A stretch of DNA of 64,000 bases from an uncultured bacterium (GTDB lineage: Bacteria > Patescibacteriota > Microgenomatia > Levybacterales > UBA12049): positions 106,814 to 170,813 of the forward strand of contig CAWGXL010000010.1 in the NCBI GenBank assembly GCA_963826535.1, written 5' to 3'. The notes beneath the pieces were generated by a model. It did no database searches, had not been told where the DNA came from, and saw nothing but the letters and a program-made list of their open reading frames with translations. Shown piece by piece: positions 24,701 to 64,000 of this stretch. The first letter of the stretch is position 1, and every line of letters starts with the position of its first letter. Both the position numbers and the translations under genes were made by a program.

Positions 24701-24959
24701 CCCTCTTTGAGTTTTTGCCGATTTGCAAATTTTATTCAGAGCAATTGGATAGGTCATATGATGTTGAAGATATGGAGTTTCTTTTTACTGCATATGAGAA
24801 AGTAACTATTAATGGGATAATGGTTAATAAATGGAGGATAATTAAGGAAAAATAGAAATATGAAACAAGTAGAATCTAAATATTTACATTGTGCTAATAA
24901 CTTGAATTAAAGTTTGCTTTTTTAATACATATGTTTATAATATTATGTATTAAAAAGAC

Positions 24960-25373: not shown

Positions 25374-25738
25374 AAAAATATATTAATCAAGGGAAAATTT
25401 TTATTCGTAATTTAGATGCGAATAATATTAAAGTGGATGCTGCACTATGGTTTTATGATTCCGATTCGAAAACATGGAAATTAATAATAGCAACGCCCAA
25501 GTATGACCAAGAAGGGGCTCTTAAAGTGTATCAACAAATCGAAAATTATCTACCACATGAAGGTGAAAATCATATTTCCCTACAAGATATTTCTGTAGTG
25601 AGCCCGCATGATTATTTAATATCTATATTAAGAAGTGCTATTAAAACACCAGTGGATGCAATTGCTGATATAAAATTTAATGACAATACAATTAATAACA
25701 AGTATATTGAAGGAGCCTATATTTACCGACTTACATAA
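25352..25738 (+). CDS. Unknown 128-aa partner protein co-transcribed with the HEPN gene; lacks the GSx(n)DxD motif of minimal nucleotidyltransferases
   Basis: ORF track; overlapping start, same strand. Confidence 0.5.
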   Translation: MDSTLLVEKYINQGKIFIRNLDANNIKVDAALWFYDSDSKTWKLIIATPKYDQEGALKVYQQIENYLPHEGENHISLQDISVVSPHDYLISILRSAIKTPVDAIADIKFNDNTINNKYIEGAYIYRLT

Positions 25739-25747
25739 ATGGTAAAA

Positions 25748-46176: not shown

Positions 46177-47691
46177 ATGGGTGTAATCCAAAAACATTGG
46201 TTGCTAATTATTACGGTTTTATTATTAATAATTCTCTACTTTGCAACTCGTCTCTATAATATTCTTGGGTTACCCATATTCACCGATGAAGCAATTTACA
46301 TCCGCTGGTCCCAAATTGCCCTTAACGATGCAGCCTGGCGTTTTATTTCACTTACCGACGGCAAGCAGCCAATGTACGTATGGATCGCTATGCCTCTTCT
46401 TAAATTTGTCGAAGATCCGCTACTTGCCGGAAGACTTGTATCTGTCTTAGCGGGATTTTTTACAACAATTGGTATATTTTTTCTAACTAAGGAAATATTT
46501 AAAAACCAAAAAACATCCTTTCTGGCATGTCTAATCTATATTTTATTCCCATTCGCGCTGGTATATGACCGTTTAGCCCTCTACGACTCGCTTGTTGCAA
46601 TGTTTATAGTCTGGTCACTCTACTTTGAAGTCTTACTGGCAAAATACGTTAGACTTGATCTGGCTCTTATCCTGGGGATGATAATTGGAGCCGGCATGCT
46701 CACGAAAAGCAGTGCTGAATTTGCACTTATCCTATTGCCATTTTCACTCTTACTTTTTGACATTAAAGCTAAATATCGTAAACAAAGACTAGTTTCTTGG
46801 ATTATATATGCAGCAGTTTCTGCGATCCTCGCAAATATTATATATATGGTTTTGCGGCTCTCACCCTTCTTTTACATCATCGATCAAAAGAATCATGTCT
46901 TCATTTATACGATCGAAGAATGGATCAAGCAGCCATTTGCTTCACTATTTAATAATTTAAATCTTTTTGAGAGTTGGTTGATAGAATACACAACTATTCC
47001 TTTCTTAATACTTGTCATCGCCGCATTTTTAATACGCTCTAAATTTAAAAACGAAAAAACACTTTTATATTTATGGTTTCTTATTCCGCTAATAAGTACT
47101 GCTTTTTTCGGAAAACAAGTTTATCCAAGATTCCTGTTATTTATGATTGTACCGCTCATACCTATAGCTGCATACACTTTGTTTTTTCTCTTTGAAAAAA
47201 CTAGATACTTCTGGCTAAAAGCACTAATATTCATGAGTTTTATTTTAATGTTTCTATTAAATGATTATTATATTATCAATGATTTTAATAAAGCATTAAT
47301 ACCGGAAGCAGATAAGGGACAATTTATTTCTGGCTGGCCATCAGGTATCGGAGTTACCGAAACCGTGACGTTTCTAAAGGAGGAAGGTAAAAACAAGAAA
47401 ATATTCGTCGGAACCCAAGGGACATTTGGTCTTATGCCTTATTCTCTGGAAATATTTCTAAATAAAAATCCCAACATCAAAATAGCAGGGTACTGGCCGA
47501 CCAATGACACACCACCAAAAGAAGTGTTAAGTAATGCTTCAAAAATGCCAACCTATTTCGTTTTCTATCAAGCCTGTCCCTCCTGCAGTGCTATAGGTAT
47601 AGCCCCCGAATCCTGGCCTGTTAAGGAGATTTTTCAGATAAAAAAGATAGAGAAAAACAGTTTTTACACTCTCTACCAAATTAATCCCTAA
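46177..47691 (+). CDS. GT-C membrane glycosyltransferase, ArnT/PMT (GT39/GT83)-like
   Basis: First-loop PIFTDEAIY (DE motif) after TM1; ~12 TM; 504 aa. Confidence 0.65.
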   Translation: MGVIQKHWLLIITVLLLIILYFATRLYNILGLPIFTDEAIYIRWSQIALNDAAWRFISLTDGKQPMYVWIAMPLLKFVEDPLLAGRLVSVLAGFFTTIGIFFLTKEIFKNQKTSFLACLIYILFPFALVYDRLALYDSLVAMFIVWSLYFEVLLAKYVRLDLALILGMIIGAGMLTKSSAEFALILLPFSLLLFDIKAKYRKQRLVSWIIYAAVSAILANIIYMVLRLSPFFYIIDQKNHVFIYTIEEWIKQPFASLFNNLNLFESWLIEYTTIPFLILVIAAFLIRSKFKNEKTLLYLWFLIPLISTAFFGKQVYPRFLLFMIVPLIPIAAYTLFFLFEKTRYFWLKALIFMSFILMFLLNDYYIINDFNKALIPEADKGQFISGWPSGIGVTETVTFLKEEGKNKKIFVGTQGTFGLMPYSLEIFLNKNPNIKIAGYWPTNDTPPKEVLSNASKMPTYFVFYQACPSCSAIGIAPESWPVKEIFQIKKIEKNSFYTLYQINP

Positions 47692-47745
47692 CAATAAACT
47701 TATTAATTAATTTAATATTCATTTTTTGATAGAGAAGCTTTACAT

Positions 47746-49311
47746 ATGTTATGGTTTTGGAAAAATAAAATTAAGTTTCTCACGCTGTTTTTGCTTTTAA
47801 TTGCAGCTATACCTTCGATTATTCCGCTTTTCCATAAAGGGTTTTTTGTAACTGACGATGGCGAATGGATGATCATACGCTTCGCGGCATTTTATTCTGC
47901 ATTACGCGATGGTCAATTTCCTGTCCGTTTTCTACACACGCTAAACTCCGGTTATGGCTATCCTGTCGGGACATTTTTATATCCGGGATTTATGTATTTT
48001 GCTATTCCTATTCAAATCATTACATCAAACTTTGTCGACACGATAAAAATAATTTTCGGATTATCATTGATCGGGTCAACGCTTTTTACCTATTTATGGT
48101 TAAGCAAATTCTTTTCAAAAACCGCGAGCGTTATTGGCGCAATAGTTTCTCTTTATTTGCCCTATCATTTGTATGACATTTATACACGTGGTTCAGTTGG
48201 AGAAGTATTAGCATTTGCATGGATCCCATTTATATTTTGGATGATTGAAAGAAAGAGTATTTTTTACCCGGCAATTGGAATAACATTTCTTATTCTTTCT
48301 CATAATACCATTGCTGCGCTATTCCTCCCCATAATTATTTTTTATCTGGCATTAAAAATTTATTCAGATAGAAAAAAATGGCCAATACATATGCAGGCTT
48401 TTATGTTAGCAGCTGGGATCGGGATGGCAGTGTTTTTCATCGGGCCTGCATTTTTTGAGCTGCAACTTACCAAATTTACGCAAGTAAAAGTATCAAACCC
48501 ATTTTCATATTTTGCAGACATAAATTTAATTGGTCCTGTTTCCATTTTTATTTTTATAATTGCAATAGTTACTTACCTTTTTAAAAGAAACAAAATAAAA
48601 AATTACAAAAATATTTTAATTATGTTTTTTATAATAACTGCTATCAGTTTATTTCTAAGCACGTCATACAGTACAGATATTTGGAAAATAACCAGCACAT
48701 CATGGATACAATTTCCATTTAGAATTTTGTCTATTCTTATTTTTTCTATATCATTCCTTACAGCATTTGTTCTCACCGAAATAAAAGGGACAATGAGAAC
48801 ATTTTTATTATTTTTAATTATTATTCTACTGGTTATGTCAGCTCTTCCATTTAGCACTCCAAAGGAGTTTCTTGATAAAGGTGAGTCCTTCTATTATACG
48901 AATGCTGCAACAACAACAGTTCAAGATGAATATATGCCGGTTTGGGTAAAGCAAAAATACCTTCAAATGCCGGAAAATAAAGTTGATATAATAAATGGGC
49001 AAGGTAGTGTTAGGGATATTCTATATAACAATAAACAAATATCATTCTCAGCTGATATTGGGAAAAATGCGTTTATTCAAGTTAATACAATTTATTGGCC
49101 CGGATGGAACGCATATGTTGATGAAAAACTAGTACCAATTTCATATGACAATCCAAAAGGCGTGATGAGACTAAATGTTTCATCAGGGAATCATTTGATA
49201 AAATTGAAATTTAGTGAAACTCCACCTCGTTTAACAAGCGATGCTTTGTCTTTAGCAAGCTTGATAATAATCTTATTTGTTTGTATAAAAAGAAGATATG
49301 AATACTTTTAA
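47746..49311 (+). CDS. YfhO-like GT-C membrane protein (large polytopic N-domain, TDDGEW loop motif, C-terminal beta-rich domain YWPGWNAYVDEK)
   Basis: 521 aa; paralogous to the next gene. Confidence 0.55.
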   Translation: MLWFWKNKIKFLTLFLLLIAAIPSIIPLFHKGFFVTDDGEWMIIRFAAFYSALRDGQFPVRFLHTLNSGYGYPVGTFLYPGFMYFAIPIQIITSNFVDTIKIIFGLSLIGSTLFTYLWLSKFFSKTASVIGAIVSLYLPYHLYDIYTRGSVGEVLAFAWIPFIFWMIERKSIFYPAIGITFLILSHNTIAALFLPIIIFYLALKIYSDRKKWPIHMQAFMLAAGIGMAVFFIGPAFFELQLTKFTQVKVSNPFSYFADINLIGPVSIFIFIIAIVTYLFKRNKIKNYKNILIMFFIITAISLFLSTSYSTDIWKITSTSWIQFPFRILSILIFSISFLTAFVLTEIKGTMRTFLLFLIIILLVMSALPFSTPKEFLDKGESFYYTNAATTTVQDEYMPVWVKQKYLQMPENKVDIINGQGSVRDILYNNKQISFSADIGKNAFIQVNTIYWPGWNAYVDEKLVPISYDNPKGVMRLNVSSGNHLIKLKFSETPPRLTSDALSLASLIIILFVCIKRRYEYF

Positions 49312-51043
49312 AAAGTTTTTACCTATAATTATTATTTTAATCTTGTTGTATTGGGCAATAAAACCTTTATTTATGCCGGGATTTTTTCCGATCCATGATG
49401 ACGAGCAAGTGGGGAGATTGTACGATTTACATCTGGATGTAATATCAGGGCATTTGCCGCCTAGGCTCTCGCAAAATTTGGGGTATGGATATGATTATCC
49501 ACTTTTTAATTTTTATCCATCTTTTATTTATTACGTTGCCGAAATATATCATCTCTTAGGTTTTTCTTATATAACGTCAATAAAATTAATGATTGCAACC
49601 GGATTTATCCTTGCTGCATTGGCTATGTATGTCCTTTCAAAAGAATATTTTGGAAAATTAGCAGGTGTAATATCATCATTAGTTTATACGTATTCTTCCT
49701 ATCATAGTGTTGATGTATATGTTCGGGGAGCATTGCCGGAGTTCTGGTCATTTGTTTTTTTACCGGCAGTATTTTGGAGTTTTACAAAGCTGGCGAAAAA
49801 GCCTGGAGATTTTTTCACAGTAATTTCAGGAATATTTTTGGCAGCATTTGTGTTAACGCATAATCTAATTGCCATGATGAGTGCTCCCTTTATCGTCTGT
49901 TTTCTTATTTATCTTTATTTTGTTACAAAAGACAAAAAACGATTTGTTTTATCAGCAATTTTTTCAGGAATAATAGGTGTCTGTTTATCCGCATATTTTT
50001 GGCTGCCTGCCATTTTAGAAAAACAATACACAATGGTAAGCGTGCTAACAACTGAGTTAGCAGATTACGCAATACATTTCGTTTATCCTATTCAGTTTTG
50101 GTACTCACCATGGGGATATGGAGGATCAACCGTAGGGATGGGAGATGGACTCTCATTTCAAATTGGTAGAATATATTTTCTTTGTCTAATTGCAGTTTGT
50201 ATTTATGCCTTTATGCTATTAAAAAAACAGAGAAAGACAGCAATATTGTTGCTTTTGCTTCTTGGTCTTTTTATCTTTTCGCTTTTTATACAAACCTCAC
50301 ACTCTAAGTTTATTTGGGATGCACTGCAATCGTTGCTGGCGTATATTCAATTTCCCTGGAGATTCTTGGTGCTTAGTTTTTTTATAGCTTCGTTTGCTCT
50401 TGGAGCACTTTTTGCAACCCCCTTTCCGCTTTATAAAAAGAAAAATTTTGTATATTTACAATATGTTTTAGGAATATTTGTTGTATTCGTTGTTATTTAT
50501 AAAGCTTCTACGATTTTTAATCCATCAACATACCTTATTAATGTGAGAGATCAAGATTATACTAGTCAGGATGTAATGCGATGGAAAACAAGCAACATGG
50601 CATTTGAGTATGTACCAATAGGAATAGCTACGAAAAAATCAGCAAGAGGTAATACTGTTGTTGACATCAAAGAATCTCAAATAGCGAATGGGCCATTTTC
50701 AGTTATTTACGGAAATATGAAGATAAAAGTAACAAAAGACATTCCCCAGGAAAAATCAGCAATAGTAACCGTTAAAAAAGACGGAATATTGCAATTCAAT
50801 GTTTATACATTTCCTGGATGGCAAGTCTTCGTAAATAATAAAGAGCGGGCTTATTCCGCAAACAATTCCTTGAGATTGTTGAGAATTACCTTGGCTGAAG
50901 GCGAGCATGTAGTTGTTGCTAAATTTAATGATACGCCTGTCAGAATTGTAGGAAATTCGCTTTCAGCTATCACAATTATAGGAATTTTGCTATTTGGGGT
51001 TTATTATATGGTTTTACCAACTATGAAGAAAATAAGGAAATAG
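49298..51043 (+). CDS. YfhO-like GT-C membrane protein, tandem paralog (HDDEQ loop, GYGYDYP, C-terminal YTFPGWQVFVNNK)
   Basis: 581 aa; start overlaps the upstream stop by 14 nt. Confidence 0.55.
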   Translation: MNTFKKFLPIIIILILLYWAIKPLFMPGFFPIHDDEQVGRLYDLHLDVISGHLPPRLSQNLGYGYDYPLFNFYPSFIYYVAEIYHLLGFSYITSIKLMIATGFILAALAMYVLSKEYFGKLAGVISSLVYTYSSYHSVDVYVRGALPEFWSFVFLPAVFWSFTKLAKKPGDFFTVISGIFLAAFVLTHNLIAMMSAPFIVCFLIYLYFVTKDKKRFVLSAIFSGIIGVCLSAYFWLPAILEKQYTMVSVLTTELADYAIHFVYPIQFWYSPWGYGGSTVGMGDGLSFQIGRIYFLCLIAVCIYAFMLLKKQRKTAILLLLLLGLFIFSLFIQTSHSKFIWDALQSLLAYIQFPWRFLVLSFFIASFALGALFATPFPLYKKKNFVYLQYVLGIFVVFVVIYKASTIFNPSTYLINVRDQDYTSQDVMRWKTSNMAFEYVPIGIATKKSARGNTVVDIKESQIANGPFSVIYGNMKIKVTKDIPQEKSAIVTVKKDGILQFNVYTFPGWQVFVNNKERAYSANNSLRLLRITLAEGEHVVVAKFNDTPVRIVGNSLSAITIIGILLFGVYYMVLPTMKKIRK

Positions 51044-51063
51044 GCTTCAATAGGATAAATATT

Positions 51064-52533: not shown

Positions 52534-52619
52534 TGTTAAGAACTTAATAAAGTAAGAAGTGACATGGTATATAGCTATTTAGATTGTCTCTCAAGCTGTT
52601 CTGCTATAATTTAGTTATT

Positions 52620-53339
52620 ATGAGTTTCAAGCTTCCTGAAATGTCTATATTTTTCCCTTTTTGGAATGAAGAAGCAAATATTGCGCAGGTTGTTTCAAAA
52701 GCAATCCCTGTTGCTGAAAAAGTAGCATCAAAATGGGAGATAGTCATGGTTGATGATGGATCAGCAGATGATACATTAAAGATCGCTAAAAAACTTGCAA
52801 CCAAAGATAAGAGGCTAAAGATTGTATCATTGCATCCTAATAGGGGCTATGGTGCTGCTATTAAAGCGGGACTTGAAAAAGCAAGGTATGAATACATAGT
52901 TTTTACAGATGGAGACGGCCAATTTGATTTCTCAGAAGTGGGTAAGTTCGTTGAATTAATTAAGGAGGCAGACATGGTCATAGGCTTCAGGAAAAAAAGA
53001 AACGATGCCAATCTCTTCAAAAGGCTACTACTCATGAATCTGCTCAAAGTTTGGGATTTGGTTCTTTTTCGTTTTTATTTCCGGGATATAGATTGCGGAT
53101 TCAAAATGCTCACTAGAAATGGCTTAGATAAAATCAGCCCCCTTCGCTCAGAAGGAGCCATAATTACTACGGAAATTTTGGCAAAAGCTAAAAAAAAGAA
53201 ATTAAAGATCAAGGAAGTTGGTGTCAGTCACTACCCAAGAATTTACGGAGCACAATCAGGCGCTAATTTCCCCGTCATTCTTCGGGCAGTTTTAGAAAGC
53301 TTTCAACTATGGTACGATTTACATTATGGAAGAACTTGA
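52620..53339 (+). CDS. GT2 polyprenol-phosphate glycosyltransferase (Dpm1/ArnC-like)
   Basis: FPFWNEE...IVMVDDGSADDT...YIVFTDGDGQFD motifs. Start uncertain (track ORF begins 52584). Confidence 0.75.
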   Translation: MSFKLPEMSIFFPFWNEEANIAQVVSKAIPVAEKVASKWEIVMVDDGSADDTLKIAKKLATKDKRLKIVSLHPNRGYGAAIKAGLEKARYEYIVFTDGDGQFDFSEVGKFVELIKEADMVIGFRKKRNDANLFKRLLLMNLLKVWDLVLFRFYFRDIDCGFKMLTRNGLDKISPLRSEGAIITTEILAKAKKKKLKIKEVGVSHYPRIYGAQSGANFPVILRAVLESFQLWYDLHYGRT

Positions 53340-54783
53340 TCTCGCGATAGTCACCAAACGCTCCATGAGTGGTGTTTTTGCATTGGTTTCACGCTCCTTT
53401 CTTGTGCAGATTCTAGCAATTGTTAGTAATTTTGTCTTAACTATCTATCTTGAGCCGTCGATGTTTGGTATTTTCTTTGCGGTATCTGCAATAAATGTCT
53501 TCCTCGCCTATTTTCAAGATGTCGGTCTCGCCGCGCTCATTATCCAAAAAAAACTAGAACCGACGCTTGTGGAGCTCCGCACCACATTTACAATACAACA
53601 AATTCTGGTTCTCTCAATTGTTATTCCTGTTTTTCTTTTTGCAACAAACATTGCCGCATTTTTTCATTTGAATCAAGATGGGTTGTATGTACTGTACGCG
53701 TACTTGGCTTCTTTTATTCTTTCTTCCCTGAAAACAATTCCTACCGCGCTTCTTGAAAGAAAGTTGGAATTTCAAAAATTAATCATTCCACAAATTGCTG
53801 AAAGTATTCTGTACAGTGTGGCACTGATTATTTTTGCTGTTATGGGCTATGGTGTGATGACATTTACTATCGCAATTCTTCTGAGAAGTATCATCGGACT
53901 TCCGCTGATTTATATGGTACAACCATGGGATATAGGTGTGGCGTTTAATAAACGCTTAGTAAAAGAACTTCTTACTAGAGGTTCTCCATTTCAAGGAAAC
54001 AGTATCTTGGGATTGGTGAAAGATGATTTATTAAATTTATATATCGCGTCTGTATTACCACTGACACAAGTTGGATATATAGGATTTGCACAAAAATGGG
54101 CGTTCATGCCGCTGCGACTTGTGATGGATAATGTCATCAAAGTTACGTTCCCGTCCTTTAGTAGATTACAACATGATAAAGAAGCATTAAGAAAAGTTAT
54201 AGAAAAATCTCTATATCTCATCTCGTTCTTTATTTTTCCTATTGTCGCAGGCTTTATCACCTTTTCAGCTCAGTTAATTGCATTTATTCCCCGTTACGAA
54301 AAATGGGAACCGGCGATTATTGCTCTTATGTTTTTTTCACTGAATGTGCTTTTCGCCTCAATTACTGTTCCGTTAACAAATTTTCTCAACGCGATAGGTA
54401 AAGTGAATATCACACTGAGCTATATGGTTTTTTGGACGATACTTTCCTGGGTACTGACGGTGTTTTTCATACAGAAATTCGGATATAATGGAGTTGCCGC
54501 AGCTTCAGCCATTGTTGCAGCAAGTGTATTATTGATTCTGTATCCAGTTAAAAAAGAAATTAATTTTTCATTTATTGCTCCCATTTGGAAGCAATTTATA
54601 GCAGCGCTAATTATGGGATTATTTGCTTTCGCCACCCGGGAATTTGTACACTCGTTATTGCAATTAGGAATTCATATTATATTGTCTTGTACTGTTTATT
54701 TGGGAATATTATTTCTTATCTCAAAAGATGATCTTTTCAAAACGATAAGCTTTATCAGGAAAACAATAAGAAAAGAAAAATGA
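53326..54783 (+). CDS. Wzx-like oligosaccharide flippase (polysaccharide biosynthesis protein family)
   Basis: 485 aa, ~12-14 TM, MOP-superfamily pattern. Confidence 0.65.
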   Translation: MEELDLAIVTKRSMSGVFALVSRSFLVQILAIVSNFVLTIYLEPSMFGIFFAVSAINVFLAYFQDVGLAALIIQKKLEPTLVELRTTFTIQQILVLSIVIPVFLFATNIAAFFHLNQDGLYVLYAYLASFILSSLKTIPTALLERKLEFQKLIIPQIAESILYSVALIIFAVMGYGVMTFTIAILLRSIIGLPLIYMVQPWDIGVAFNKRLVKELLTRGSPFQGNSILGLVKDDLLNLYIASVLPLTQVGYIGFAQKWAFMPLRLVMDNVIKVTFPSFSRLQHDKEALRKVIEKSLYLISFFIFPIVAGFITFSAQLIAFIPRYEKWEPAIIALMFFSLNVLFASITVPLTNFLNAIGKVNITLSYMVFWTILSWVLTVFFIQKFGYNGVAAASAIVAASVLLILYPVKKEINFSFIAPIWKQFIAALIMGLFAFATREFVHSLLQLGIHIILSCTVYLGILFLISKDDLFKTISFIRKTIRKEK

Positions 54784-55697
54784 AAAAACTTTTTATTTCA
54801 ATTCTCAATTATAATGGTGAGAAAGATACAAGAGCATGCTTGGAGTCTTTATCAGCCTGTATTACGGATGGGATTGATCTTAGGGTGGTTGTCATTGATA
54901 ATAATTCTATCGATGGATTTTCTACGAAGGAAGGTGATTTTCCAAAACTAAAACTAGCTATTATAAAAAACTTCAGCAATGAAGGATTCTCTGGGGGACA
55001 TAATAAAGGGATAACATTAGCTCTCAAAAATAATGCAGATTATATAATGGTCCTCAATAACGATACAATTGTCGATAGTCATTTCATTGTTAATTTGGTT
55101 ACGGTATTGGAGGAGGAAAGTTCCATCGGAGTAGTCATCCCAAAGATCTACTTTGCCAAAGGACATGAATTTCACAAAGGTAAATACAAGCAGGAAGAGT
55201 TAGGAAAAGTCATTTGGTATGCAGGAGGTTTTACTGACTGGAACAACATACAGAGCGTTCACCGCGGAGTTGATGAAGTTGATCGTAGTCAATACGATAA
55301 AATTGAATCTACAGAATTCGCGACCGGTTGCTGCATGCTTTTCAAACGGGAAGTTTTGGAAAAAGTCGGTTTATTTGATGAAAGATATTTTCTATACTAT
55401 GAAGACGCAGATTTATCACAACGTATAAAGAAAGCAGGATTTAAGATTTTTTATGTTCCCACCGCAATGTTGGTTCATTTTAACGCATCTTCTTCAGGAG
55501 GGCCGGGCAATAAATTGCATGATTACTTTTTGACCCGAAACCAAATGCTTTTCGGCATGTCATATGCTCCCCTTAGGTCCAAAATTGCCTTAATAAAACA
55601 AAGTTTACATTTACTCGTGAATGGTAGACCTTATCAAAAGATTGCCATTAGAGATTATTATTTGCATAAATTTGGAAAGGGGTCATTTTTCAAATGA
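54780..55697 (+). CDS. Glycosyltransferase family 2
   Basis: ISILNYNGEKDT...VVVIDNNSIDG; 305 aa. Confidence 0.8.
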   Translation: MKKLFISILNYNGEKDTRACLESLSACITDGIDLRVVVIDNNSIDGFSTKEGDFPKLKLAIIKNFSNEGFSGGHNKGITLALKNNADYIMVLNNDTIVDSHFIVNLVTVLEEESSIGVVIPKIYFAKGHEFHKGKYKQEELGKVIWYAGGFTDWNNIQSVHRGVDEVDRSQYDKIESTEFATGCCMLFKREVLEKVGLFDERYFLYYEDADLSQRIKKAGFKIFYVPTAMLVHFNASSSGGPGNKLHDYFLTRNQMLFGMSYAPLRSKIALIKQSLHLLVNGRPYQKIAIRDYYLHKFGKGSFFK

Positions 55698-56455
55698 GCA
55701 AGATTTCAGCAATCATTATAACTAAAAATTCCGAAAATCTAATTGCCGATTGCATAGAATCAATCAGCGGACTGGCGGATGAAATAATTGTTATTGATGA
55801 TGCTTCTACCGACCGTACAGCCGATTTAGCCAAACGCCTAGGCGCCCGTGTAGAGATCCATCCTCAGACACATGTTGACTTCGCCGAAAAACGCAACCTC
55901 GGATTAAAAAAAGCCAAAAACAAATGGATTCTTTATATTGATGCCGACGAAAGAGTTTCTTCGGAATTAAAAGAGTCCATCTTGGAAGTTATAAATCTAC
56001 GTAAACCTGAATATCAAGCCTTCAAAATTCGCCGCAAAAACTTTTATTTTGGCTCCCACCCTTGGCCGTATATAGAAAAATTGGAAAGATTGTTTAATAA
56101 ATCTTCGTTAAAAGGCTGGCAGGGAAAAGTGCACGAGACGCCTTTGTTCGATGGAAAGATTAGTGAATTAAATGGTTACTTACTGCATTACACACACAGA
56201 GATTTAACTTCTATGGTAAACAAAACCATATCCTGGTCCAAAATCGAAGCAGAATTGCGCTACAAATCGCATCACCCTCCTGTGTATTGGTGGCGTTTTC
56301 CCCGTGTCATGCTTACAGCTTTTTATAATTCATATGTCCAACAAAAGGGATACAAGGCCGGAACAGTCGGGCTAATCGAAAGTACTTACCAGGCTTTCAG
56401 CATATTTATTACCTACGCACGCCTCTGGGAAATGCAACAGAAGAAAGACCAATAA
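55694..56455 (+). CDS. Glycosyltransferase family 2
   Basis: ISAIIITKNSEN...IIVIDDASTDRT...YIDADE (DXD motif); 253 aa. Confidence 0.8.
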   Translation: MSKISAIIITKNSENLIADCIESISGLADEIIVIDDASTDRTADLAKRLGARVEIHPQTHVDFAEKRNLGLKKAKNKWILYIDADERVSSELKESILEVINLRKPEYQAFKIRRKNFYFGSHPWPYIEKLERLFNKSSLKGWQGKVHETPLFDGKISELNGYLLHYTHRDLTSMVNKTISWSKIEAELRYKSHHPPVYWWRFPRVMLTAFYNSYVQQKGYKAGTVGLIESTYQAFSIFITYARLWEMQQKKDQ

Positions 56456-56549
56456 CATATTGAAATCTTCAGAGCAGATTATACACTTCGAGTAGTTTTA
56501 GTACCATGGGGTAAATCTAAAGTAGAATTTTATTATGACTTCCGGAAAG

Positions 56550-56834
56550 CTATTTAACTTTTACAAAGAACATATTTTTAAACCAAGTCTTTGCCTCATG
56601 AATTGTTAGTCTTTTCTTAGCAAAATAAAACAAATAAACAAGCTCTATTATACCACCAGTATGTATAATCATGAAGAATATAAACCAATTTCTCTGATTA
56701 AGTCGCGCGCTTCGCCAAAGAACAATACCCGACCAAAGAAGAGACCAAAATAAGATAATATAATATAGCCAAGAAGGAACTCCATTAGGACTCATATATA
56801 GAAACATGGTAACATGAGGAATATGCATATGCAA
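56550..56834 (-). CDS. Small membrane protein (2 TM), hypothetical
   Basis: ORF track; it is the only minus-strand gene inside the + strand glycosylation locus. Confidence 0.4.
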   Translation of the reverse strand: MHMHIPHVTMFLYMSPNGVPSWLYYIILFWSLLWSGIVLWRSARLNQRNWFIFFMIIHTGGIIELVYLFYFAKKRLTIHEAKTWFKNMFFVKVK

Positions 56835-56862
56835 GAGCCGCGAAAATTGGTAAAATCAAACT

Positions 56863-57975
56863 ATGCGTATAGGAATTTACGACCCATATCTTAATTCGCT
56901 TAGCGGTGGTGAAAAATACATGTTAACAGCCGCAGCCTGTCTTTCGTATAAATATAAAGCCACAATCTTCTGGGATGATCCGAAAGTGCTTGAAATGGCT
57001 CAACGAAAACTTCGCATCGATCTTAGCAAAACAATAGTAAAACCAAATATTTTTTCCTCAAAAGTGTCTGTAGTAAGTCGATTATTAGAAACCGCGAAAT
57101 ATGATCGCCTCATTTTTTTAAGTGATGGAAGCATACCCTTGACCCTGGCAAAAAAAACAATTCTCCATTTTCAATTTCCGGTTGAATGGGTGAAAGTAGA
57201 CGATATAAGAACAAAAATAAAATTATTAAAAATTAGTAGTATCATCTGTAACTCAATATTTACGAAAAAATTTATTGACAAAAAGTTTAATATAAACAGT
57301 AAAGTTCTTTATCCGCCCTGCGTAAATTCTGATGATATTGATAAGTTTTCCATGCAAATTAAGTTTAATGAAAAGAAAAACATTATTTTAACAGTCGGTA
57401 GATATAGCCCTCTGCCTGCCCGTCCGGCAGGCGGGCCTAAAGGAGGAAGTATAAAGAAACAAGAAGAAATGATCAAAGTATTCCAAAAAATGGTTGATAA
57501 CGGATTAAATAATTGGAAACTTTATGTCGCAATAAGTTTCTTAAAAGAAAATGAAAAATATTTAGAGGAAGTCGAAAAAACTATAAAAAATTACCCCATA
57601 AAAATTATAAAAAATAGTAATTTTAGTGAACTGGAAAAACTATATAGCGACGCAAAAATATATTGGCATGCTGCAGGTTTTGGAGAAGACCTGGAGAAAC
57701 ACCCTGAAAGAGCCGAGCATTTCGGTATAACGACAGTCGAGGCAATGGCACATAAAGTAATCCCAGTCGTATATGCCCGTGGCGGTCAGCCGGAAATAGT
57801 TGACAACAACATCAACGGTTTTCTTTGGGAAACAGAACAAGAATTAATGCAAAAAACAAAAAAAATAATTACAGACAACTTACTCATGGAACAGATGGGA
57901 AATTTAGGGTTAAAAAAAGCCAGATTATATACATCTGAAAGATTCTGTGAAGAATTACAAAAAATAATTAAATGA
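56863..57975 (+). CDS. Glycosyltransferase family 4 (GT-B, group 1)
   Basis: EHFGITTVEAMAHKVIPVV (EX7E motif); 370 aa. Confidence 0.8.
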   Translation: MRIGIYDPYLNSLSGGEKYMLTAAACLSYKYKATIFWDDPKVLEMAQRKLRIDLSKTIVKPNIFSSKVSVVSRLLETAKYDRLIFLSDGSIPLTLAKKTILHFQFPVEWVKVDDIRTKIKLLKISSIICNSIFTKKFIDKKFNINSKVLYPPCVNSDDIDKFSMQIKFNEKKNIILTVGRYSPLPARPAGGPKGGSIKKQEEMIKVFQKMVDNGLNNWKLYVAISFLKENEKYLEEVEKTIKNYPIKIIKNSNFSELEKLYSDAKIYWHAAGFGEDLEKHPERAEHFGITTVEAMAHKVIPVVYARGGQPEIVDNNINGFLWETEQELMQKTKKIITDNLLMEQMGNLGLKKARLYTSERFCEELQKIIK

Positions 57976-60368
57976 AATTATCTAAATATTTACCAATTCT
58001 TTTTTTAATAATTACGATTCTTTTATTTTTCTACCCTCTTTCTTTGTATGGTAAACTGCCAATCCCGGCAGATACAATAGTAGGCTTATACCACCCTTTT
58101 AGAGACATTTATGCGAAAGATTATCCACGTGGTATTCCCTTCAAAAATAGTTTGATTACTGACCCTGTCCGTCAGCAATATCCCTGGAGATTCTTTTCCG
58201 TTCATACAGAGGAAAATTTTGCCCTGCCGCTTTGGAACCCATACAGCTTGGCAGGGTCGCCTCTTCTTGCCAACTTTCAATCTGCATCATTTTATCCCCT
58301 AAATATTCTGCTTCTTCTTCCCACTTTTAGCAAATGGTGGAGCTTGCTTATTCTGCTTCAGCCATTATTAGCAGGTATATTTATGTACTTTTACCTAAAA
58401 GAAATAAAACTAAACATTTATTCCTGTTTTCTTGGCGGACTAACATATGCATTTTGCGGATTCTCAATAGCTTGGCTTGAATGGGGAACTATAGGACATG
58501 TAGCATTATGGTTGCCTTTAGTATTGCTATGTATTGATAAAATCTTTTACCAATTTAATAAGTCAGTTAAACCAGCCGGAGTAAGTTTACAACTTGCCCC
58601 GAAACATTTATTGAAAGTGTCACATTTAAAAAACCGTTCTGAGGCAGGTTACAAACCTGCTCTGGCGAAATTAATATCTCAAAATTATATCTGGCCGTTA
58701 GTTTTCATATTTTCATTAACCTCTTCGTTCTTCGCCGGGCACTTACAGACGTTTTTCTATCTATTTATTATTTCTCTTCTATATTTCTTTGCTCGCTGGT
58801 TACAGTTTGGTAGAAAAAATAAACCATTTCTTATATTCTTGCTTCTTAATTCTTGCTTCTTAATTCTTACCTCCATACAATGGCTTCCAACGCTTCAACT
58901 TATTCTCCAAAGCGCCCGCGATGTGGATCAGATACCATTACAAAACGAAGGTTGGTTCTTGCCAACCCAACATCTCATCCAATTTTTCGCGCCTGATTTC
59001 TTTGGAAACCCGACAACGCTCAATTACTGGGGAGTATGGAATTATGGTGAATTTATTGCTTATATCGGTATTTTACCCTTAATAATGGCCTGCTTTGCTT
59101 TATTTTACAGGTATGATAAAAAAACTCTCTTTTTTGGTTCAATTTTTTTTCTCTCTCTCCTTTTTGCCTTGCCATCTTGGTTTGCGAAGCTGCCCTTTGA
59201 GTTAGGAATTCCATTTCTAAATACTGCTCAGCCCACTAGGCTTTTATTCCTAACTGACTTCGCATTATGCATTTTGGCAGTACTTGGACTTGATTATTTT
59301 ATCCGTACTAAACAAAAAAATAAAATAATTTATCCTTTAGTTTTTATTTTTCTCATCTATGTTGCACTTTGGTTTTTTGTATTAAACCCCCAACTTAAAC
59401 CTTCAGAAGTCACTACGCAAAATATAGACGTAGCCAAAAACAATCTTTATATCCCCACGCTAATTTTTTGCCTGAGTCTGGCAACTATTTTACTATCACT
59501 TTTAATAAAAAGAAAAAATTTACAAATTGTTTTTTTGAGTATCTTAATTTGTTTAACTTTACTTGATTTATTTCGATTTGCATACAAATTTACTCCATTT
59601 AGTGACGAAAAATATCTTTATCCGCGGGTTTCTAGTCTCTCTGCGCTTTATAAACATTCGGGTATATCCCGTGTTATGACAACTGATTCTAGAATATTAC
59701 CGCCAAATTTCTCGGTCATGTATCACATACAAAGTATTGATGGTTACGACCCGTTATATCTAAGAAGATACGGAGAATTAATTGTGGCAATGGAAAGAAA
59801 TGCACCTGATATTAATCCCCCATTCGGATTCAATAGAATAATTACACCTCACAACTACGATTCAAGAATTGCGGACTTGCTTGGCGTAAAATACGTGCTC
59901 AGCTTGACCGACCTCTCATCTCCAAAATTAAGAAAAGTATATGAGGAAGGCCAAACCAAAATCTATGAAAATAAAAACTCCTACGAACGTGTCTTTTTTG
60001 TAGACCGGATTTATGACTCGTCAAGTAAGGAGGATTCAATAAATGCAATGTTTGATAAAAATATTGATTTAAAACACACAGCAGTAGTAGAAGATTGGAA
60101 TTACAATAAAAATATTTTCAAAAATCAAGACAATAAAGCAGAGGTTGCCAAGTATAGGAACAATGAAATAATAATAAAAACCAGTAGTAGCGATGAAGGA
60201 TTCTTAGTCCTTACAGACACATTCTATCCGACCTGGCATGCTAAAATATGCGAAACATCTCAAAATAACTGTAAAGAGACAAAAATTTATCGTACAGATT
60301 ACAATTTCCGGGGAATAATAGTCCCAGCTGGTGAAAATAACATTGTATTTTATATAACGATGCTATAA
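57972..60368 (+). CDS. YfhO-like GT-C membrane protein (798 aa), third paralog; C-terminal FYPTWHAKI motif
   Basis: Multi-TM N-domain, C-terminal soluble domain. Contains an 18-bp direct duplication cttgcttcttaattcttg cttcttaattcttacc at ~58840-58875. Confidence 0.55.
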   Translation: MKLSKYLPILFLIITILLFFYPLSLYGKLPIPADTIVGLYHPFRDIYAKDYPRGIPFKNSLITDPVRQQYPWRFFSVHTEENFALPLWNPYSLAGSPLLANFQSASFYPLNILLLLPTFSKWWSLLILLQPLLAGIFMYFYLKEIKLNIYSCFLGGLTYAFCGFSIAWLEWGTIGHVALWLPLVLLCIDKIFYQFNKSVKPAGVSLQLAPKHLLKVSHLKNRSEAGYKPALAKLISQNYIWPLVFIFSLTSSFFAGHLQTFFYLFIISLLYFFARWLQFGRKNKPFLIFLLLNSCFLILTSIQWLPTLQLILQSARDVDQIPLQNEGWFLPTQHLIQFFAPDFFGNPTTLNYWGVWNYGEFIAYIGILPLIMACFALFYRYDKKTLFFGSIFFLSLLFALPSWFAKLPFELGIPFLNTAQPTRLLFLTDFALCILAVLGLDYFIRTKQKNKIIYPLVFIFLIYVALWFFVLNPQLKPSEVTTQNIDVAKNNLYIPTLIFCLSLATILLSLLIKRKNLQIVFLSILICLTLLDLFRFAYKFTPFSDEKYLYPRVSSLSALYKHSGISRVMTTDSRILPPNFSVMYHIQSIDGYDPLYLRRYGELIVAMERNAPDINPPFGFNRIITPHNYDSRIADLLGVKYVLSLTDLSSPKLRKVYEEGQTKIYENKNSYERVFFVDRIYDSSSKEDSINAMFDKNIDLKHTAVVEDWNYNKNIFKNQDNKAEVAKYRNNEIIIKTSSSDEGFLVLTDTFYPTWHAKICETSQNNCKETKIYRTDYNFRGIIVPAGENNIVFYITML

Positions 60369-60381
60369 CGAAATAATTAAT

Positions 60382-61335
60382 ATGAATCTAAGTATAATTA
60401 TCCCAAATTACAACGGTGAAACTTTGTTGAAAAAAAACTTACCGCAAGTTTTCGATGCTGTTAAAAAATATAAACATGGTACAGTAGAAATAATTATCCC
60501 CGATGATCCTTCAGATGATAAATCAAAGGAAATCATTAAAAATTTTATTAATAATATAAAAGAAAAAAATATAGTCGGTAAAACAATTGCAAATATCGAT
60601 AAGGATCAAGCTGGATTTTCCAAAAATGTAAATCGTGGCGTCAGTTTAGCTCGAGGTGACATTCTTATCCTTCTAAATACAGATGTCTGCCCAAAGGAAG
60701 ATTTTCTGAGTACATTGCTGCCTCATTTTACCGATAAAAATGTTTTTGCTGTTGGCTGTATGGACGAAAGCATAGAGGGAGACCAAAAAATCTTGCGCGG
60801 CAGAGGAGTGGGTATTTGGAAAAAAGGTTTTTTACTTCATGCGAAAGGTGAAACCGATAAGAAAAATACGCTTTGGGCGAGCGGTGGCAGTAGCGCATTC
60901 AGTAAAAAAATTTGGGATGAACTGGGTGGTTTGGACGAAATTTACAATCCGTTTTATTGGGAGGATAATGACCTATCTTACCGCGCGTTAAAATCAGGAT
61001 ATAAAATCATTTTTGAAAACAAAAGCATTGTAATTCATGAACACGAAAAAGGTACTATAAAGACTATGATTGACCCTTCTAAAATAAAAAAAATAGCATA
61101 CAGAAATCAGTTTATATTTATTTGGCTAAATATCACCGACAAAGATTTGTTATTTTCTCATATAGTATGGCTGCCCTATCACTTTATAACTGCCCTTATG
61201 AGACATGATTGGTACTTTTATTATGGTTTCTTCGCGGCATTTCAAAAAATAAATGAAGTGCTAAAAAAGAGAAAAATATACACGAAACAATTCATAAGAA
61301 CAGATAAAGAAATCTTATCAGAATTTAAAATATGA
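60382..61335 (+). CDS. Glycosyltransferase family 2
   Basis: LSIIIPNYNGE...DD motif...WEDNDL; 317 aa. Confidence 0.8.
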   Translation: MNLSIIIPNYNGETLLKKNLPQVFDAVKKYKHGTVEIIIPDDPSDDKSKEIIKNFINNIKEKNIVGKTIANIDKDQAGFSKNVNRGVSLARGDILILLNTDVCPKEDFLSTLLPHFTDKNVFAVGCMDESIEGDQKILRGRGVGIWKKGFLLHAKGETDKKNTLWASGGSSAFSKKIWDELGGLDEIYNPFYWEDNDLSYRALKSGYKIIFENKSIVIHEHEKGTIKTMIDPSKIKKIAYRNQFIFIWLNITDKDLLFSHIVWLPYHFITALMRHDWYFYYGFFAAFQKINEVLKKRKIYTKQFIRTDKEILSEFKI

Positions 61336-62048
61336 AATTATCAATTATCATGCCGGTTTTTAACGAAGAGAATACTGTAGGAGAAATACTAAATAGAGTA
61401 AATAAAGCAGAAATACCGAATATTGAAAAAGAAATTATCATCATAAATGATGGATCTACAGACAATTCTCATAATATTATTAAAAAAGAAATAGAGAAAA
61501 TAAAAAATGCTATTTATATAACCCACAAAGAAAACCTAGGAAAAGGAGCAGCAATAAAAACAGGTATCAAATCTGCCACCGGTGATTATATTATCATTCA
61601 AGACGCAGACCTGGAGTATAACCCGCAAACTTATAAATATTTACTAACACCTATAATCCAAAAGAAAACAGAAGTTGTTTATGGCACCAGATTAAAGCGC
61701 CTTCCCAATTTTTCAAGAGATGAAAAAAGCATCCATTTTTTTCTTCATTATATGGGAAATAAAGCGCTTAGTTTTTTAACCAGCATCCTCTATGGCCAAT
61801 GGCTTACCGACATGGAGACTTGCTATAAAATATTTCCAAGAAAGGCTGTTATTGATATGAAATTAAATGCTCGCGGTTTTGAATTTGAACCTGAAATTAC
61901 GGCAAAGCTATTTAAAAAAGGATATAAAATAGTTGAGTTGCCAATATCTACTGTTCCCAGGGGTTACAATGAGGGAAAAAAATTGCATACAATTAGAGAC
62001 GGAGTAAAAGCACTATGGTCACTGGTTAAATATCGATTTGTTGATTAA
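61332..62048 (+). CDS. GT2 polyprenol-phosphate glycosyltransferase (Dpm1-like)
   Basis: LSIIMPVFNEE...IIINDGSTDNS...IIQDADLEYNP; 238 aa. Confidence 0.8.
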   Translation: MKLSIIMPVFNEENTVGEILNRVNKAEIPNIEKEIIIINDGSTDNSHNIIKKEIEKIKNAIYITHKENLGKGAAIKTGIKSATGDYIIIQDADLEYNPQTYKYLLTPIIQKKTEVVYGTRLKRLPNFSRDEKSIHFFLHYMGNKALSFLTSILYGQWLTDMETCYKIFPRKAVIDMKLNARGFEFEPEITAKLFKKGYKIVELPISTVPRGYNEGKKLHTIRDGVKALWSLVKYRFVD

Positions 62049-62057
62049 ATTAAAAGA

Positions 62058-63554
62058 ATGAGTATGAATATTTCTGAAAAATTTCGATTAAATTTTCCGC
62101 TTCTTCTCTCTTTAGTTTTTATTTATATAATTTCTGTTTGGCTAAGATTAGCTTTTCTTGACACAAATTTGTTCTTTGGTCCTGAACAGGGAAGAGATTT
62201 TTTGGTAATTAAGGAATTTGTTTTGCAACATAAATTGACACTGATTGGACCAAAAACGGATATAGGGGGTATATTTCATGGACCGGTATATTACTATTTT
62301 ACATCAATACCATTTGCAATGAGTCAAGGTGACCCTCTTTTTTCGTCAAAGTTTTTAATTTTCTTTAATTGTGTGACAGTATTTTTTATCTATCTTTTAG
62401 GTAAACGTCTTCACAACCGTTCTACAGGTATTATAGCAGCAATTTTATTTGCTTTCTCTTTCAACGCGATTGTTTACGCGCGTTGGCTTTCAAATCCTCC
62501 ATTATCTATACCATTGGTCACAATGGCAATGTTTTTTTTAATAGACTTTCTTAAAGGTAACAAAAAGAGCTTAATTGGTTACTCAATTTGTTTTGGATTG
62601 CTTAGTCAAGTAGAATTTTTAAACATATTATTTTTTTCGGCTATCACACTAGGTGTTATTGTTGTATTTTTTAATCATTTTAGAAAAACATCATCGGCTT
62701 TTTTATTCTTTAATTTTCTTATTGCTTCAGTGCTGTGTGTCGGTTCATATATTTTGTTTGACATAAGACATCAGTTTCTTATTACGAATAATATTTTAAA
62801 CCTTCTCAATGGACAAACAGGATTTCATATCTCTTTATTATCTGCAGTGCAAAAAAGCGGTTTGGAGTTTTTTCATTCATTTACGACAACTATTTTACCC
62901 CTTGGGGGACCTTGGAGTTTTTTGCTTTTGTTTTTTGCGGTTGGGCTGCTTCTAGTTCGCTCCAAAAAGCAGAAAGAGTATGTTCTTGTAATATTGTGGT
63001 TATTTGTTCCGTTGATTCTACTTATTATTCTGCGTCACGATGTTCTGGAGCATTTTTTTGTCTCACTAATTCCTGCTTTTATTCTCATCACCGCACTGGT
63101 GGTTGAATCAGTATTAAGAAAATCTTTACCGATTGGAATAGTTATTGCAATTGTATTGATTGGTGTACAGCTAGTTGCCTGGAAAAATACAATTCCACAA
63201 AATAATAATATTTTTTTTCAGGCAACACAACCGGAACTTCGCTATTCCAATGAATTGGAAACTATAGATCGGATTTACCAAGAATCAGGTAAAAATTCAT
63301 TTGCAATTCAATCATATACGATTCCATATTGGAGTCAACAGGGTTGGGAATATTTATTCTGGAGCTATGGTGAAAGAAAATATGGAAGATCACCTGTTAG
63401 TCAAAAAGATACAAAAAAATTATTTGTTATTATTCAAGATGATTCAAATTCAAAATATCAACAGGAATGGCTTAAGAACACTGTCAGTAAGTGGGGATCA
63501 GTGACTCAAACTTTTCGCTATGGCGTTTTGACTATTCGGGAGTTGCGATTATAG
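62058..63554 (+). CDS. GT-C membrane glycosyltransferase (ArnT/PMT-like; FGPEQGRDF loop)
   Basis: 498 aa, ~12 TM. Confidence 0.55.
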   Translation: MSMNISEKFRLNFPLLLSLVFIYIISVWLRLAFLDTNLFFGPEQGRDFLVIKEFVLQHKLTLIGPKTDIGGIFHGPVYYYFTSIPFAMSQGDPLFSSKFLIFFNCVTVFFIYLLGKRLHNRSTGIIAAILFAFSFNAIVYARWLSNPPLSIPLVTMAMFFLIDFLKGNKKSLIGYSICFGLLSQVEFLNILFFSAITLGVIVVFFNHFRKTSSAFLFFNFLIASVLCVGSYILFDIRHQFLITNNILNLLNGQTGFHISLLSAVQKSGLEFFHSFTTTILPLGGPWSFLLLFFAVGLLLVRSKKQKEYVLVILWLFVPLILLIILRHDVLEHFFVSLIPAFILITALVVESVLRKSLPIGIVIAIVLIGVQLVAWKNTIPQNNNIFFQATQPELRYSNELETIDRIYQESGKNSFAIQSYTIPYWSQQGWEYLFWSYGERKYGRSPVSQKDTKKLFVIIQDDSNSKYQQEWLKNTVSKWGSVTQTFRYGVLTIRELRL

Positions 63555-63573
63555 TTTTTTTTGGATAAAAAAG

Positions 63574-64000
63574 ATGAAAAAGCTTTTTAATACAAAGATG
63601 ATATTAATCTATGTCGTCCTTATAGCGGCATTTTTGCGGTTTTATCAGCTTGGGATAAATCCGCCTTCATTAACCTGGGATGAGACAGCATGGGGATACA
63701 ATGCCTATTCGATAGGGATTGACGGACGTGATGAGTTTGGAAGATTGCTGCCATACGACTATCTTGAATCATTTGGAGATTTTAAGCCTCCAATGTATGC
63801 TTATTTAAGTGTGGTTCCCGTTAAGATTTTTGGTCTTAATGAATTTTCGACCCGCTTTGCTTCAGCATTTTTTGGAACACTCACAGTATTAGTTACGTAT
63901 TTTTTGGTCAAAGCTCTGTTTTCATTAAACCAGAAAAAAAATCAAAATTCAAAAAATTCATTGGAAATTGGGAATTGGAAAATGGAAGCACCAATTATAG
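63574..64000 (+). CDS. GT-C ArnT/PMT_2-like glycosyltransferase, N-terminal part (runs off window)
   Basis: Own translation MKKLFNTKMILIYVVLIAAFLRFYQLGINPPSLTWDETAWGYNAYS (the DExxY-type first-loop motif). Not in the ORF track because it has no stop within the window. Confidence 0.6.
   Translation, partial: MKKLFNTKMILIYVVLIAAFLRFYQLGINPPSLTWDETAWGYNAYSIGIDGRDEFGRLLPYDYLESFGDFKPPMYAYLSVVPVKIFGLNEFSTRFASAFFGTLTVLVTYFLVKALFSLNQKKNQNSKNSLEIGNWKMEAPII

Follow-up and report, generated by a model that had tools for sequence, protein, structure and literature searches.

The 64,000-nucleotide stretch of contig CAWGXL010000010.1 analysed here (assembly GCA_963826535.1, positions 106,814 to 170,813 of the forward strand), referred to below as the window, ends in a cluster of putative glycosyltransferase (GT) genes at positions 46177-64000 that is rich in membrane enzymes of the GT-C class. 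The host is an uncultivated, ultrasmall Microgenomatia (Levy-/Roizmanbacteria-like) bacterium of the candidate phyla radiation (CPR); homologues carry the names Roizman-, Levy-, Gottesmanbacteria or Patescibacteria, and the rest of the window is bacterial, with Lon, FtsZ, FtsA, an MraY-FtsW-MurG group and two tRNAs. The cell envelope of CPR bacteria, or Patescibacteria, is almost uncharacterised, and it is the interface by which obligate epibionts attach to and feed on their hosts. We found no description of GT-C clusters, or of this cluster, in CPR in the literature searched, where one Microgenomates genome paper merely counts '29 glycosyl transferases'.

Gene content of the cluster

The cluster consists of 14 co-directional open reading frames (ORFs) on the forward strand, lettered A-N in order from 46177 to 63574, and one small antisense gene that an earlier preliminary description of this DNA had overlooked; the ORF positions given in that description agree exactly with the ORF list.

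46177..47691 (+), A: GT-C, PMT_2 (ArnT/PMT-like), 504 aa, ~10 transmembrane helices, D37-E38 after the first helix
47746..49311 (+), B: GT-C, YfhO/PTPS_related superfamily, 521 aa, 'GFFxTDDGEW' loop (D37, D38)
49298..51043 (+), C: GT-C, paralogue of B, 581 aa, D34-D35 loop
51064..52533 (+), D: predicted GT-C fold, no Pfam match, 489 aa, 'FFADDYFF' loop (D40, D41), invariant K177-E178
52584..53339 (+), E: soluble Dpm1/ArnC/GtrB-like GT2, overlapping F by 14 bp
53326..54783 (+), F: Wzx-type MOP flippase, 485 aa, ~12 transmembrane helices
54780..55697 (+), G: cytoplasmic GT2, WbbL/rhamnosyltransferase-like, no transmembrane helix, Pfam Glyco_tranf_2_3 and GT2
55694..56455 (+), H: cytoplasmic GT2, 253 aa, GT2 77 bits
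56550..56834 (-), DUF5652: small membrane protein, 94 aa, 59.6 bits (cut-off 23.4)
56863..57975 (+), I: cytoplasmic GT4 (GT-B fold), Glycos_transf_1 67.5 bits
57972..60368 (+), J: YfhO-family GT-C, 798 aa, ~11 transmembrane helices and a large C-terminal extracytoplasmic domain
60382..61335 (+), K: cytoplasmic GT2, paralogue of G (E 8e-10), GT2 79 bits
61332..62048 (+), L: soluble Dpm1-like GT2, 238 aa, directly upstream of the PMT-type GT-C genes M and N
62058..63554 (+), M: GT-C, PMT_2 type, 498 aa, conserved D47
63574..64000 (+), N: first 142 aa of a ~560-aa PMT/PMT_2-type GT-C, cut by the window end

Intergenic distances along the cluster are 54, -14, 20, 50, -14, -4, -4, 407, -4, 13, -4, 9 and 19 bp; with overlaps of 4-14 bp and a lone long gap, the genes are packed as in an operon. 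The 407-bp gap between H and I is occupied by the antisense DUF5652 gene, which from the layout is predicted to split the cluster into two transcription units. A promoter and terminator scan was uninformative, promoter-like sites being fewer than in shuffled controls. By gene order the cluster can be read as three sub-modules: (A-B-C-D)+E+F, a conserved core G-H-(DUF5652)-I-J-K, and L+M+N, the last of which probably carries on into more genes of PMT type past the window end.

Pfam matches were judged by the gathering cut-off (in bits) and NCBIfam matches by the equivalog cut-off, and AlphaFold2 (AF2) models were compared via Foldseek; the PMT_2, PMT, YfhO and PTPS_related-type Pfam families are counted in the GT-C clan. 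Pfam, structure and paralogy together give a tally of seven GT-C, five GT2, one GT4 and one flippase, matching the preliminary description, which had proposed at least six GT-C enzymes and the same numbers of the other classes. Sorted by sequence type, the GT-C proteins are PMT_2 (A, M and N), YfhO (J), PTPS_related/YfhO-like (B and C) and, as a prediction, divergent PMT_2-like (D). A, B, C, D, J and M have 10-12 transmembrane helices each by a crude hydropathy count. An acidic motif in the first loop after the first transmembrane helix is present in A, B, C and D, at the residues listed above, and in N (D36-E37), and these residues are invariant or at least 90% conserved in the family alignments A1 (D), A2 (B) and A3 (N); conserved acidic residues follow the first helix in J (D34, D45, D64) and M (D47) too. 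The preliminary description had staked its proposal on these membrane proteins belonging to GT-C, and none was found to lie outside it: A, J, M and N are placed by Pfam, B and D by AF2 and Foldseek, and C by paralogy.

Of the PMT-related proteins, A (49.3 bits) and M (31.4 bits) both exceed the PMT_2 cut-off of 26.1, and the truncated N matches PMT with 32.1 and PMT_2 with 29.9 bits and carries a 'WDE' loop (D36, E37) and a 'DFKPP' motif; these matches support the ArnT/PMT-like class previously proposed for 46177, 62058 and 63574. The closest complete genome, a Levybacteria chromosome (L007), encodes a full-length orthologue of N (561 aa, 87% identity) and, at the equivalent position, an orthologue 82% identical to M. 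In both N and its L007 orthologue the PMT match is limited to model positions 2-107 of 245 and Pfam reports no PMT_4TMC domain; judged from these profile matches, N does not qualify as a full protein O-mannosyltransferase (GT39, PMT). The N-family profile matches ArnT (5ezm) weakly, with E 0.011. The exact 498-aa product of M is absent from the protein collection while its neighbours are present, which suggests that the annotated start of M differs from the one listed here.

Proteins B, C and J had all been described as YfhO-like, and this stands for J, the sole protein of the locus above the YfhO (PF09586) cut-off (83.6 bits against 28.5), in which D34, D45, D64 and R67 are conserved among 72 orthologues. 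B and C lie below the cut-off of every Pfam model and are better placed in the PTPS_related/YfhO superfamily than in YfhO proper. B reaches 24.6 bits with PTPS_related, slightly under the cut-off of 26.4. Its homologues exceed 800, and precomputed PF10131/PF09586 assignments are attached to many of them; D38 is invariant in alignment A2, and a C-terminal beta-sandwich (413-489) is followed by a final transmembrane helix. Its AF2 model (pLDDT 90) is an all-helical membrane bundle whose top Foldseek matches are STT3, AglB, PglB and AftD (E 1e-4, probability 1.0), with further matches to ALG12, Emb and ArnT. C has two sub-threshold matches (PTPS_related 20.5 bits, cut-off 26.4; PMT_2 17 bits) and is assigned to GT-C because it is a paralogue of B, with 26% BLASTP identity across ~550 aa (E 1e-42 to 1e-45).

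Protein D, listed in the preliminary description as a 'DDxxF-loop' membrane protein, is without a Pfam model; its NCBIfam match AZOBR_p60025, 'cell surface glycopolymer formation', reaches 32 bits, below cut-off. Across its homologues, a family from Microgenomatia, the loop 'FFxDDYFFLK' is nearly invariant (alignment A1), and an exhaustive hidden Markov model search with D recovers 358 representative clusters at E <= 1e-30. Because sequence-only PDB searches of A, D and J were uninformative (those of profiles A1 and A2 likewise returned nothing meaningful), modelling with AF2 was needed. The model of D is again an all-helical membrane bundle (pLDDT 93, pTM 0.92), and its high-probability (1.00) Foldseek matches are all GT-C proteins, namely STT3, ALG12, PglB, Pmt4, ArnT, DPY19 and ALG6, at TM-scores that for B and D alike are only 0.4-0.5. 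Profile comparison by hhalign remotely connects D with the families of N (E 3e-5) and B (E 1e-5), and 16/58 of its more distant relatives reach PMT_2. From these structural matches, profile links and distant relatives D is predicted to be a divergent PMT_2-like GT-C.

The two Dpm1-like GT2 proteins anticipated by the preliminary description are E and L, paralogues with 28% identity whose nearest solved relatives are ArnC, the Pyrococcus dolichol-phosphate-mannose synthase (PfDPMS) and GtrB, and each is probably a polyprenyl-phosphate-sugar synthase. E matches GT2 with 100 bits, and its best PDB relatives are ArnC 9bhc (2e-13), GtrB 5ekp and PfDPMS 5mlz; among NCBIfam models PgfS, AglJ, ArnC and PpgS score best, all below cut-off (PgfS 75 against 500 bits). 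L matches GT2 with 124 bits and, over its full length, ArnC 9hwj (2e-14) and PfDPMS 5mlz (2e-13), with below-cut-off matches to AglJ (113 bits), ArnC, PpgS and dolichol-phosphate-hexose transferase. No transmembrane helix is predicted in E or L by hydropathy, so neither displays the membrane anchoring of such synthases. E is listed from a TTG at 52584, and its true start is probably the ATG at 52620, because orthologues are ~240 aa long.

Both synthase genes lie beside GT-C genes, E near C, D and F, and L directly upstream of M and N. A natural fusion from the representative library, found outside the window, bears on this arrangement: the 698-aa protein P0356 joins an N-terminal domain 50% identical to L (6e-60) to a C-terminal part that is a GT-C of the D family. 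As a Rosetta-stone link it supports a partnership, and thus a putative coupling, between donor synthase and GT-C transferase.

The flippase F matches Polysacc_synt_3 (150 bits), Polysacc_synt (65 bits) and MurJ (37 bits), and the NCBIfam MOP flippase (119 bits) and O-glycosylation flippase (98 bits) models, both below cut-off. With this Wzx/MOP protein at 53326, and with Pfam placing G, H and K in GT2 and I in GT4, the flippase, single GT4 and three additional GT2 enzymes of the preliminary description are all accounted for; F and every GT2 and GT4 protein of the cluster score above their Pfam gathering cut-offs. G matches the rhamnosyltransferase model TIGR01556 with 77 bits, below cut-off, and the best NCBIfam matches of I (BshA, EpsE, SdgB) are all far below theirs. 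The DUF5652 protein might regulate the soluble synthases or act as their partner, or its gene may be a mere boundary mark between two operons.

A further pair of genes of these classes lies elsewhere in the window. The product of 16045-16812 (-), near a tRNA-Glu gene, is a third Dpm1/PgfS/ArnC-like GT2 (GT2 85 bits), and the gene is overlapped from downstream by 14874-16052 (-), encoding a 392-aa protein with ~10-12 transmembrane helices, no Pfam match and a weak match to the GT87-type alpha-1,6-mannosyltransferase MptA (TIGR03459, 42 bits, E 4.5e-11). Counting this pair, the window has a probable eight GT-C and three Dpm1-like genes among ~60 genes.

Conservation in related genomes

The comparison of locus architecture that had been suggested was made on 80 related loci fetched with J as anchor and mapped by BLASTP, of which 41 have full 10-kb flanks; the best related locus shows 68% identity. 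The order kept among relatives is (B)-C-E-F-(GT2')-G-H-(YfhO')-I-J-K-L-N-N-N, and F-G-H-I-J-K is preserved in 35/41 fully flanked loci from Levy-, Gottesman- and Roizmanbacteria. H and I occur in all 41 of these loci, K in 40 and C in 30, while A orthologues (41-49% identity) head the cluster in five. The median content per 22 kb in the 41 loci is seven GT-C-like and two Dpm1-like genes. The density of GT-C genes emphasised in the preliminary description is therefore a real feature and not a chance one, since the same arrangement is conserved in related genomes. Acquisition of the cluster as a horizontally transferred island was considered and rejected, because its GC content of 0.30-0.36 is as in the rest of the window (~35% for the window) and the cluster is vertically conserved.

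L007 has the identical order C-D-E-F-G-H-I-J-K-L-M-N, and downstream of N it encodes a further PMT-type protein, a GT2 and two additional polytopic proteins. On this comparison the cluster extends at least 6 kb past the point at which the window cuts it. The 80 loci hold 113 N-like ORFs, which frequently lie in tandem as 2-5 copies. The periphery is variable, with extra YfhO-like, GT87, DUF2079 and PMT_2 genes, 11-13-helix membrane proteins without Pfam match, methyltransferases, an epimerase and a second GT4. Many relatives have an extra YfhO-like gene (~29% identical to J) between H and DUF5652 (e.g. L006:6181-8547) and an extra GT2 (~33% identical to H) between F and G (e.g. L012:5927-6841), both absent from the window and from L007, and L007 has a 658-aa protein with 13 transmembrane helices and no Pfam match between G and H; since relatives differ in such genes at these places, GT-C content varies at fixed slots.

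In at least 35 of the 80 related loci the DUF5652 gene is likewise antisense and immediately precedes the GT4 gene. We considered whether the H-I gap is a pseudogene remnant of the relatives' extra YfhO-like gene, and rejected this because the gap holds the intact DUF5652 gene.

Proposed assembly of a surface glycan and competing explanations

A conserved cluster of this kind in Levy-, Roizman- and Gottesmanbacteria points to a substantial surface glycan. We consider it likely, on the homology and fold predictions above, that the locus is the larger part of a lineage-conserved envelope-glycan supercluster encoding an enlarged multi-component transmembrane glycosylation system. For teichoic acids, rhamnose polysaccharides and O-antigens, the combined action of a GT-A synthase, a flippase (GtrA or Wzx) and a GT-C transferase is established (PMC8035078). 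Starting from the observed gene content, family and fold assignments, conserved gene order and fusion of L- and D-type domains, we infer the donor chemistry, the cargo of F and the acceptor as follows. At the inner membrane face, E and L would transfer monosaccharides from nucleotide-sugar donors to polyprenyl phosphate, and F, translationally coupled to E, would carry sugars or oligosaccharides linked to lipid across to the outer face. A lipid-linked or membrane-anchored glycan core would be built in the cytoplasm by G, H, I and K, and the GT-C enzymes, at least seven in number, would use polyprenyl-phosphate-sugars outside the membrane, extending and decorating a surface glycoconjugate. Such donor use by the GT-C enzymes is putative, with indirect support from the adjacent Dpm1-like synthases and from P0356. 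As acceptor we prefer a glycopolymer that is associated with the wall or anchored in the membrane, perhaps alongside some glycoproteins; a wall polymer was an option not raised in the preliminary description.

Several observations weigh against this interpretation. Neither the locus, the rest of the window nor the recurrent families of related loci contain a priming phosphoglycosyl transferase, Wzy, a chain-length regulator, an LCP ligase, LtaS/Tag genes or nucleotide-sugar genes, so that the glycan backbone pathway is incomplete as seen. The only Glycos_transf_4 protein in the window is MraY, in the division and cell wall (dcw) cluster; Bac_transf, WecA-type enzymes, Wzy_C and LCP are lacking from the window and from the recurrent related-locus families, Wzx alone being found, and on these profiles the cluster does not classify as a Wzx/Wzy-dependent pathway. 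No backbone synthesis genes for an acceptor glycopolymer are recognised in the window. E and L are without the transmembrane anchors of CsbB, GtrB and ArnC, and neither a GacJ-like (DUF2304) partner nor a GtrA-type flippase was identified, no GtrA-family protein being detected anywhere in the window. The protein assignments rest throughout on homology or predicted fold; every NCBIfam equivalog score falls far short of its cut-off, which leaves no basis for calling any of the proteins an orthologue of a characterised enzyme.

Protein O-glycosylation as the main role, comparable to actinobacterial Ppm1/Pmt or Streptococcus mutans Pgf, we regard as rather unlikely. L would make a polyprenyl-phosphate-hexose, and M, N, their tandem paralogues and perhaps A would glycosylate Ser/Thr in Pro/Thr-rich linkers of exported proteins. 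N and its relatives match PMT (PF02366) above cut-off and share an invariant 'DE' motif in the first loop, and both E and the GT2 at 16045 score best against PgfS; however, the PMT match spans roughly the first 100 of 245 model positions, and PMT_4TMC is missing from the full-length orthologue. The Pro/Thr-rich secreted proteins put forward earlier as plausible substrates do exist, the window encoding two exported proteins with long Pro/Thr tracts, 4733-6400 and 29155-31128, yet in relatives such ORFs are not physically linked to the cluster (3/1308 ORFs in the 80 loci). This explanation also leaves Wzx, three non-Dpm1 GT2 enzymes, the GT4 and the YfhO-type enzymes unexplained, and these make up the most conserved core.

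The two exported proteins lie 15-40 kb away from the cluster and are possible O-glycosylation substrates. That at 4733-6400 (+) has 555 aa, an N-terminal transmembrane or signal segment and a linker beginning 'TPIPTPTVIPTPT...', and that at 29155-31128 (-) is a 657-aa beta-helix (NosD-like) protein with a PT-rich C-terminal tail.

Less probable again is a membrane-anchored lipoglycan like lipomannan or lipoarabinomannan (LAM), for which the GT4 and GT2 enzymes would glycosylate a scavenged glycerolipid inside the cell, the MOP protein would flip it, and the GT-C enzymes would elongate and branch it with polyprenyl-phosphate-sugars. The enzyme classes match PimA/PimB (GT4), Ppm1 (Dpm1-like GT2) and PimE/MptA/MptB/MptC (GT-C), and a GT87/MptA-like protein with its own Dpm1-like GT2 is present at 14874-16812, with GT87 genes also inside related clusters. 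A lipoglycan would make a priming phosphoglycosyl transferase, of which none was found, unnecessary. I, however, has no specific similarity to PimA or to glycolipid synthases in its best NCBIfam matches, and the proposal derives from enzyme classes alone, with no lipid-anchor chemistry known in these organisms.

We give similarly little credence to a more far-reaching proposal. In it, a conserved supercluster of 25-30 kb, maintained by Microgenomatia despite genomes of ~1 Mb, would assemble a large surface glycoconjugate peculiar to the lineage, step by step and outside the cytoplasm, by means of a GT-C battery fed by only two polyprenyl-phosphate-sugar donors, as a bacterial counterpart of ALG extension in the lumen of the endoplasmic reticulum (ER) or of mycobacterial LAM. 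The variable GT-C slots (extra YfhO-like, GT87, DUF2079 and tandem PMT-like genes) would make the glycan more diverse, which would serve to recognise hosts or evade phages, and DUF5652 would be a membrane partner or regulator of the synthases.

An ER- or archaeal-like system, with an oligosaccharide built on polyprenyl diphosphate, a MOP protein acting like RFT1, GT-C enzymes extending like ALG3/9/12/6/8 and an STT3-like B, C or D transferring en bloc to protein, is very improbable. STT3, AglB, PglB and ALG12 are the top structural matches of B and D, and the inventory (GT4, GT2, two DPM1/ALG5-like synthases, a MOP flippase and many GT-C enzymes) is ALG-like, but because the TM-scores are just 0.4-0.5 and ArnT, Pmt4 and AftD appear in the same lists, the STT3-type match reflects the generic GT-C_A fold. 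Moreover, the WWDxG motif is present in none of the proteins of the locus, the STT3 model TIGR04154 reaches 15 bits against a cut-off of 450, and there is no priming GT.

ArnT-like modification of membrane lipids against cationic antimicrobial peptides can practically be dismissed: PMT_2 is the ArnT family model and E and L resemble ArnC, but the ArnT (GT83) equivalog NF009784 reaches 14.6 bits against a cut-off of 567, the window has no arnA-, arnB- or arnD-like genes, seven GT-C enzymes, the GT2 and GT4 enzymes and Wzx would be left unexplained, and CPR bacteria are generally regarded as monoderm and without lipid A.

The remainder of the window and known systems

Outside the cluster, a probable mobile or defence patch at 22657-26524 comprises an IS1-like transposase fragment (22657-23511), a Replic_Relax-like ORF (23849-24700), a HEPN-domain ORF (24960-25373) and a protein with a CAP12/Pycsar-type TIR effector domain (25748-26524, 130 bits); a TumE-toxin-like ORF lies at 2439-2807. 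Two Fic/DOC-domain proteins, 7296-8282 (-) and 12121-13173 (+), flank the Lon protease (8356-10716) and an ORF without family match, the second having also a weak MarR-like winged-helix match. Similarly, DUF218 (SanA/YdcF-like) genes at 17752-18474 (-) and 20519-21163 (+) flank a 653-aa soluble ORF (18509-20470) with no family match.

The components of the cluster come from known families, their operating logic is known, and no new mechanism is revealed. The cluster is an unusually GT-C-rich, lineage-conserved instance, which includes a GT-C subfamily (that of D) without a Pfam model. Together with subfamily D, the two small soluble synthases and the donor-transferase fusion P0356 offer testable entry points to the CPR envelope.

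Among known systems, the eukaryotic and archaeal ALG/Agl pathways with STT3/AglB share the inventory of enzyme classes, and B and D are structurally nearest to STT3, AglB and ALG12, but the WWDxG motif and a priming enzyme are absent, none of the proteins belongs to the STT3 family, and the likeness is at the level of the GT-C fold only. The Pgf system of S. mutans (PgfS, PgfM1, PgfE, PgfM2) likewise combines a Dpm1-like GT2 with GT-C membrane proteins, and PgfS is the best NCBIfam model for E and for the GT2 at 16045; E, however, scores 75 against 500 bits, and the locus has no PgfE-type epimerase and no linkage to an adhesin substrate. The mycobacterial and corynebacterial machinery (Ppm1 and Pmt, PimE, MptA-C, EmbA-C, AftA-D) shares many GT-C enzymes, a Dpm1-like synthase and GT4/GT2 enzymes; a GT87-type protein is also found in the window and in related clusters, and synthase-membrane fusions occur in both (Ppm1 there, P0356 here). 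There is no detectable orthology, no arabinose (DPA) genes are present, and the host is a CPR bacterium with a ~1 Mb genome.

Closest in plan are GacI/J/K/L of Streptococcus pyogenes and CsbB/GtcA/YfhO of Bacillus, Listeria and Staphylococcus (PMC8035078), which like the locus combine a GT-A synthase, a flippase and a PMT_2/YfhO GT-C. GacIJKL and the locus share a synthase without transmembrane helices, a Wzx-type protein as candidate flippase and a synthase gene beside the genes for this protein and for GT-C enzymes, and the 14-bp overlap of E and F resembles the GacI-GacK-GacL arrangement, in which the Wzx-type protein is the proposed flippase (PMC8035078). The locus differs in that no GtrA/GtcA flippase or GacJ (DUF2304) partner was found and in having the conserved antisense DUF5652 gene. 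Whereas the Gac and CsbB systems have one of each component, the locus has two synthases and at least seven GT-C enzymes, which fall into four sequence types.

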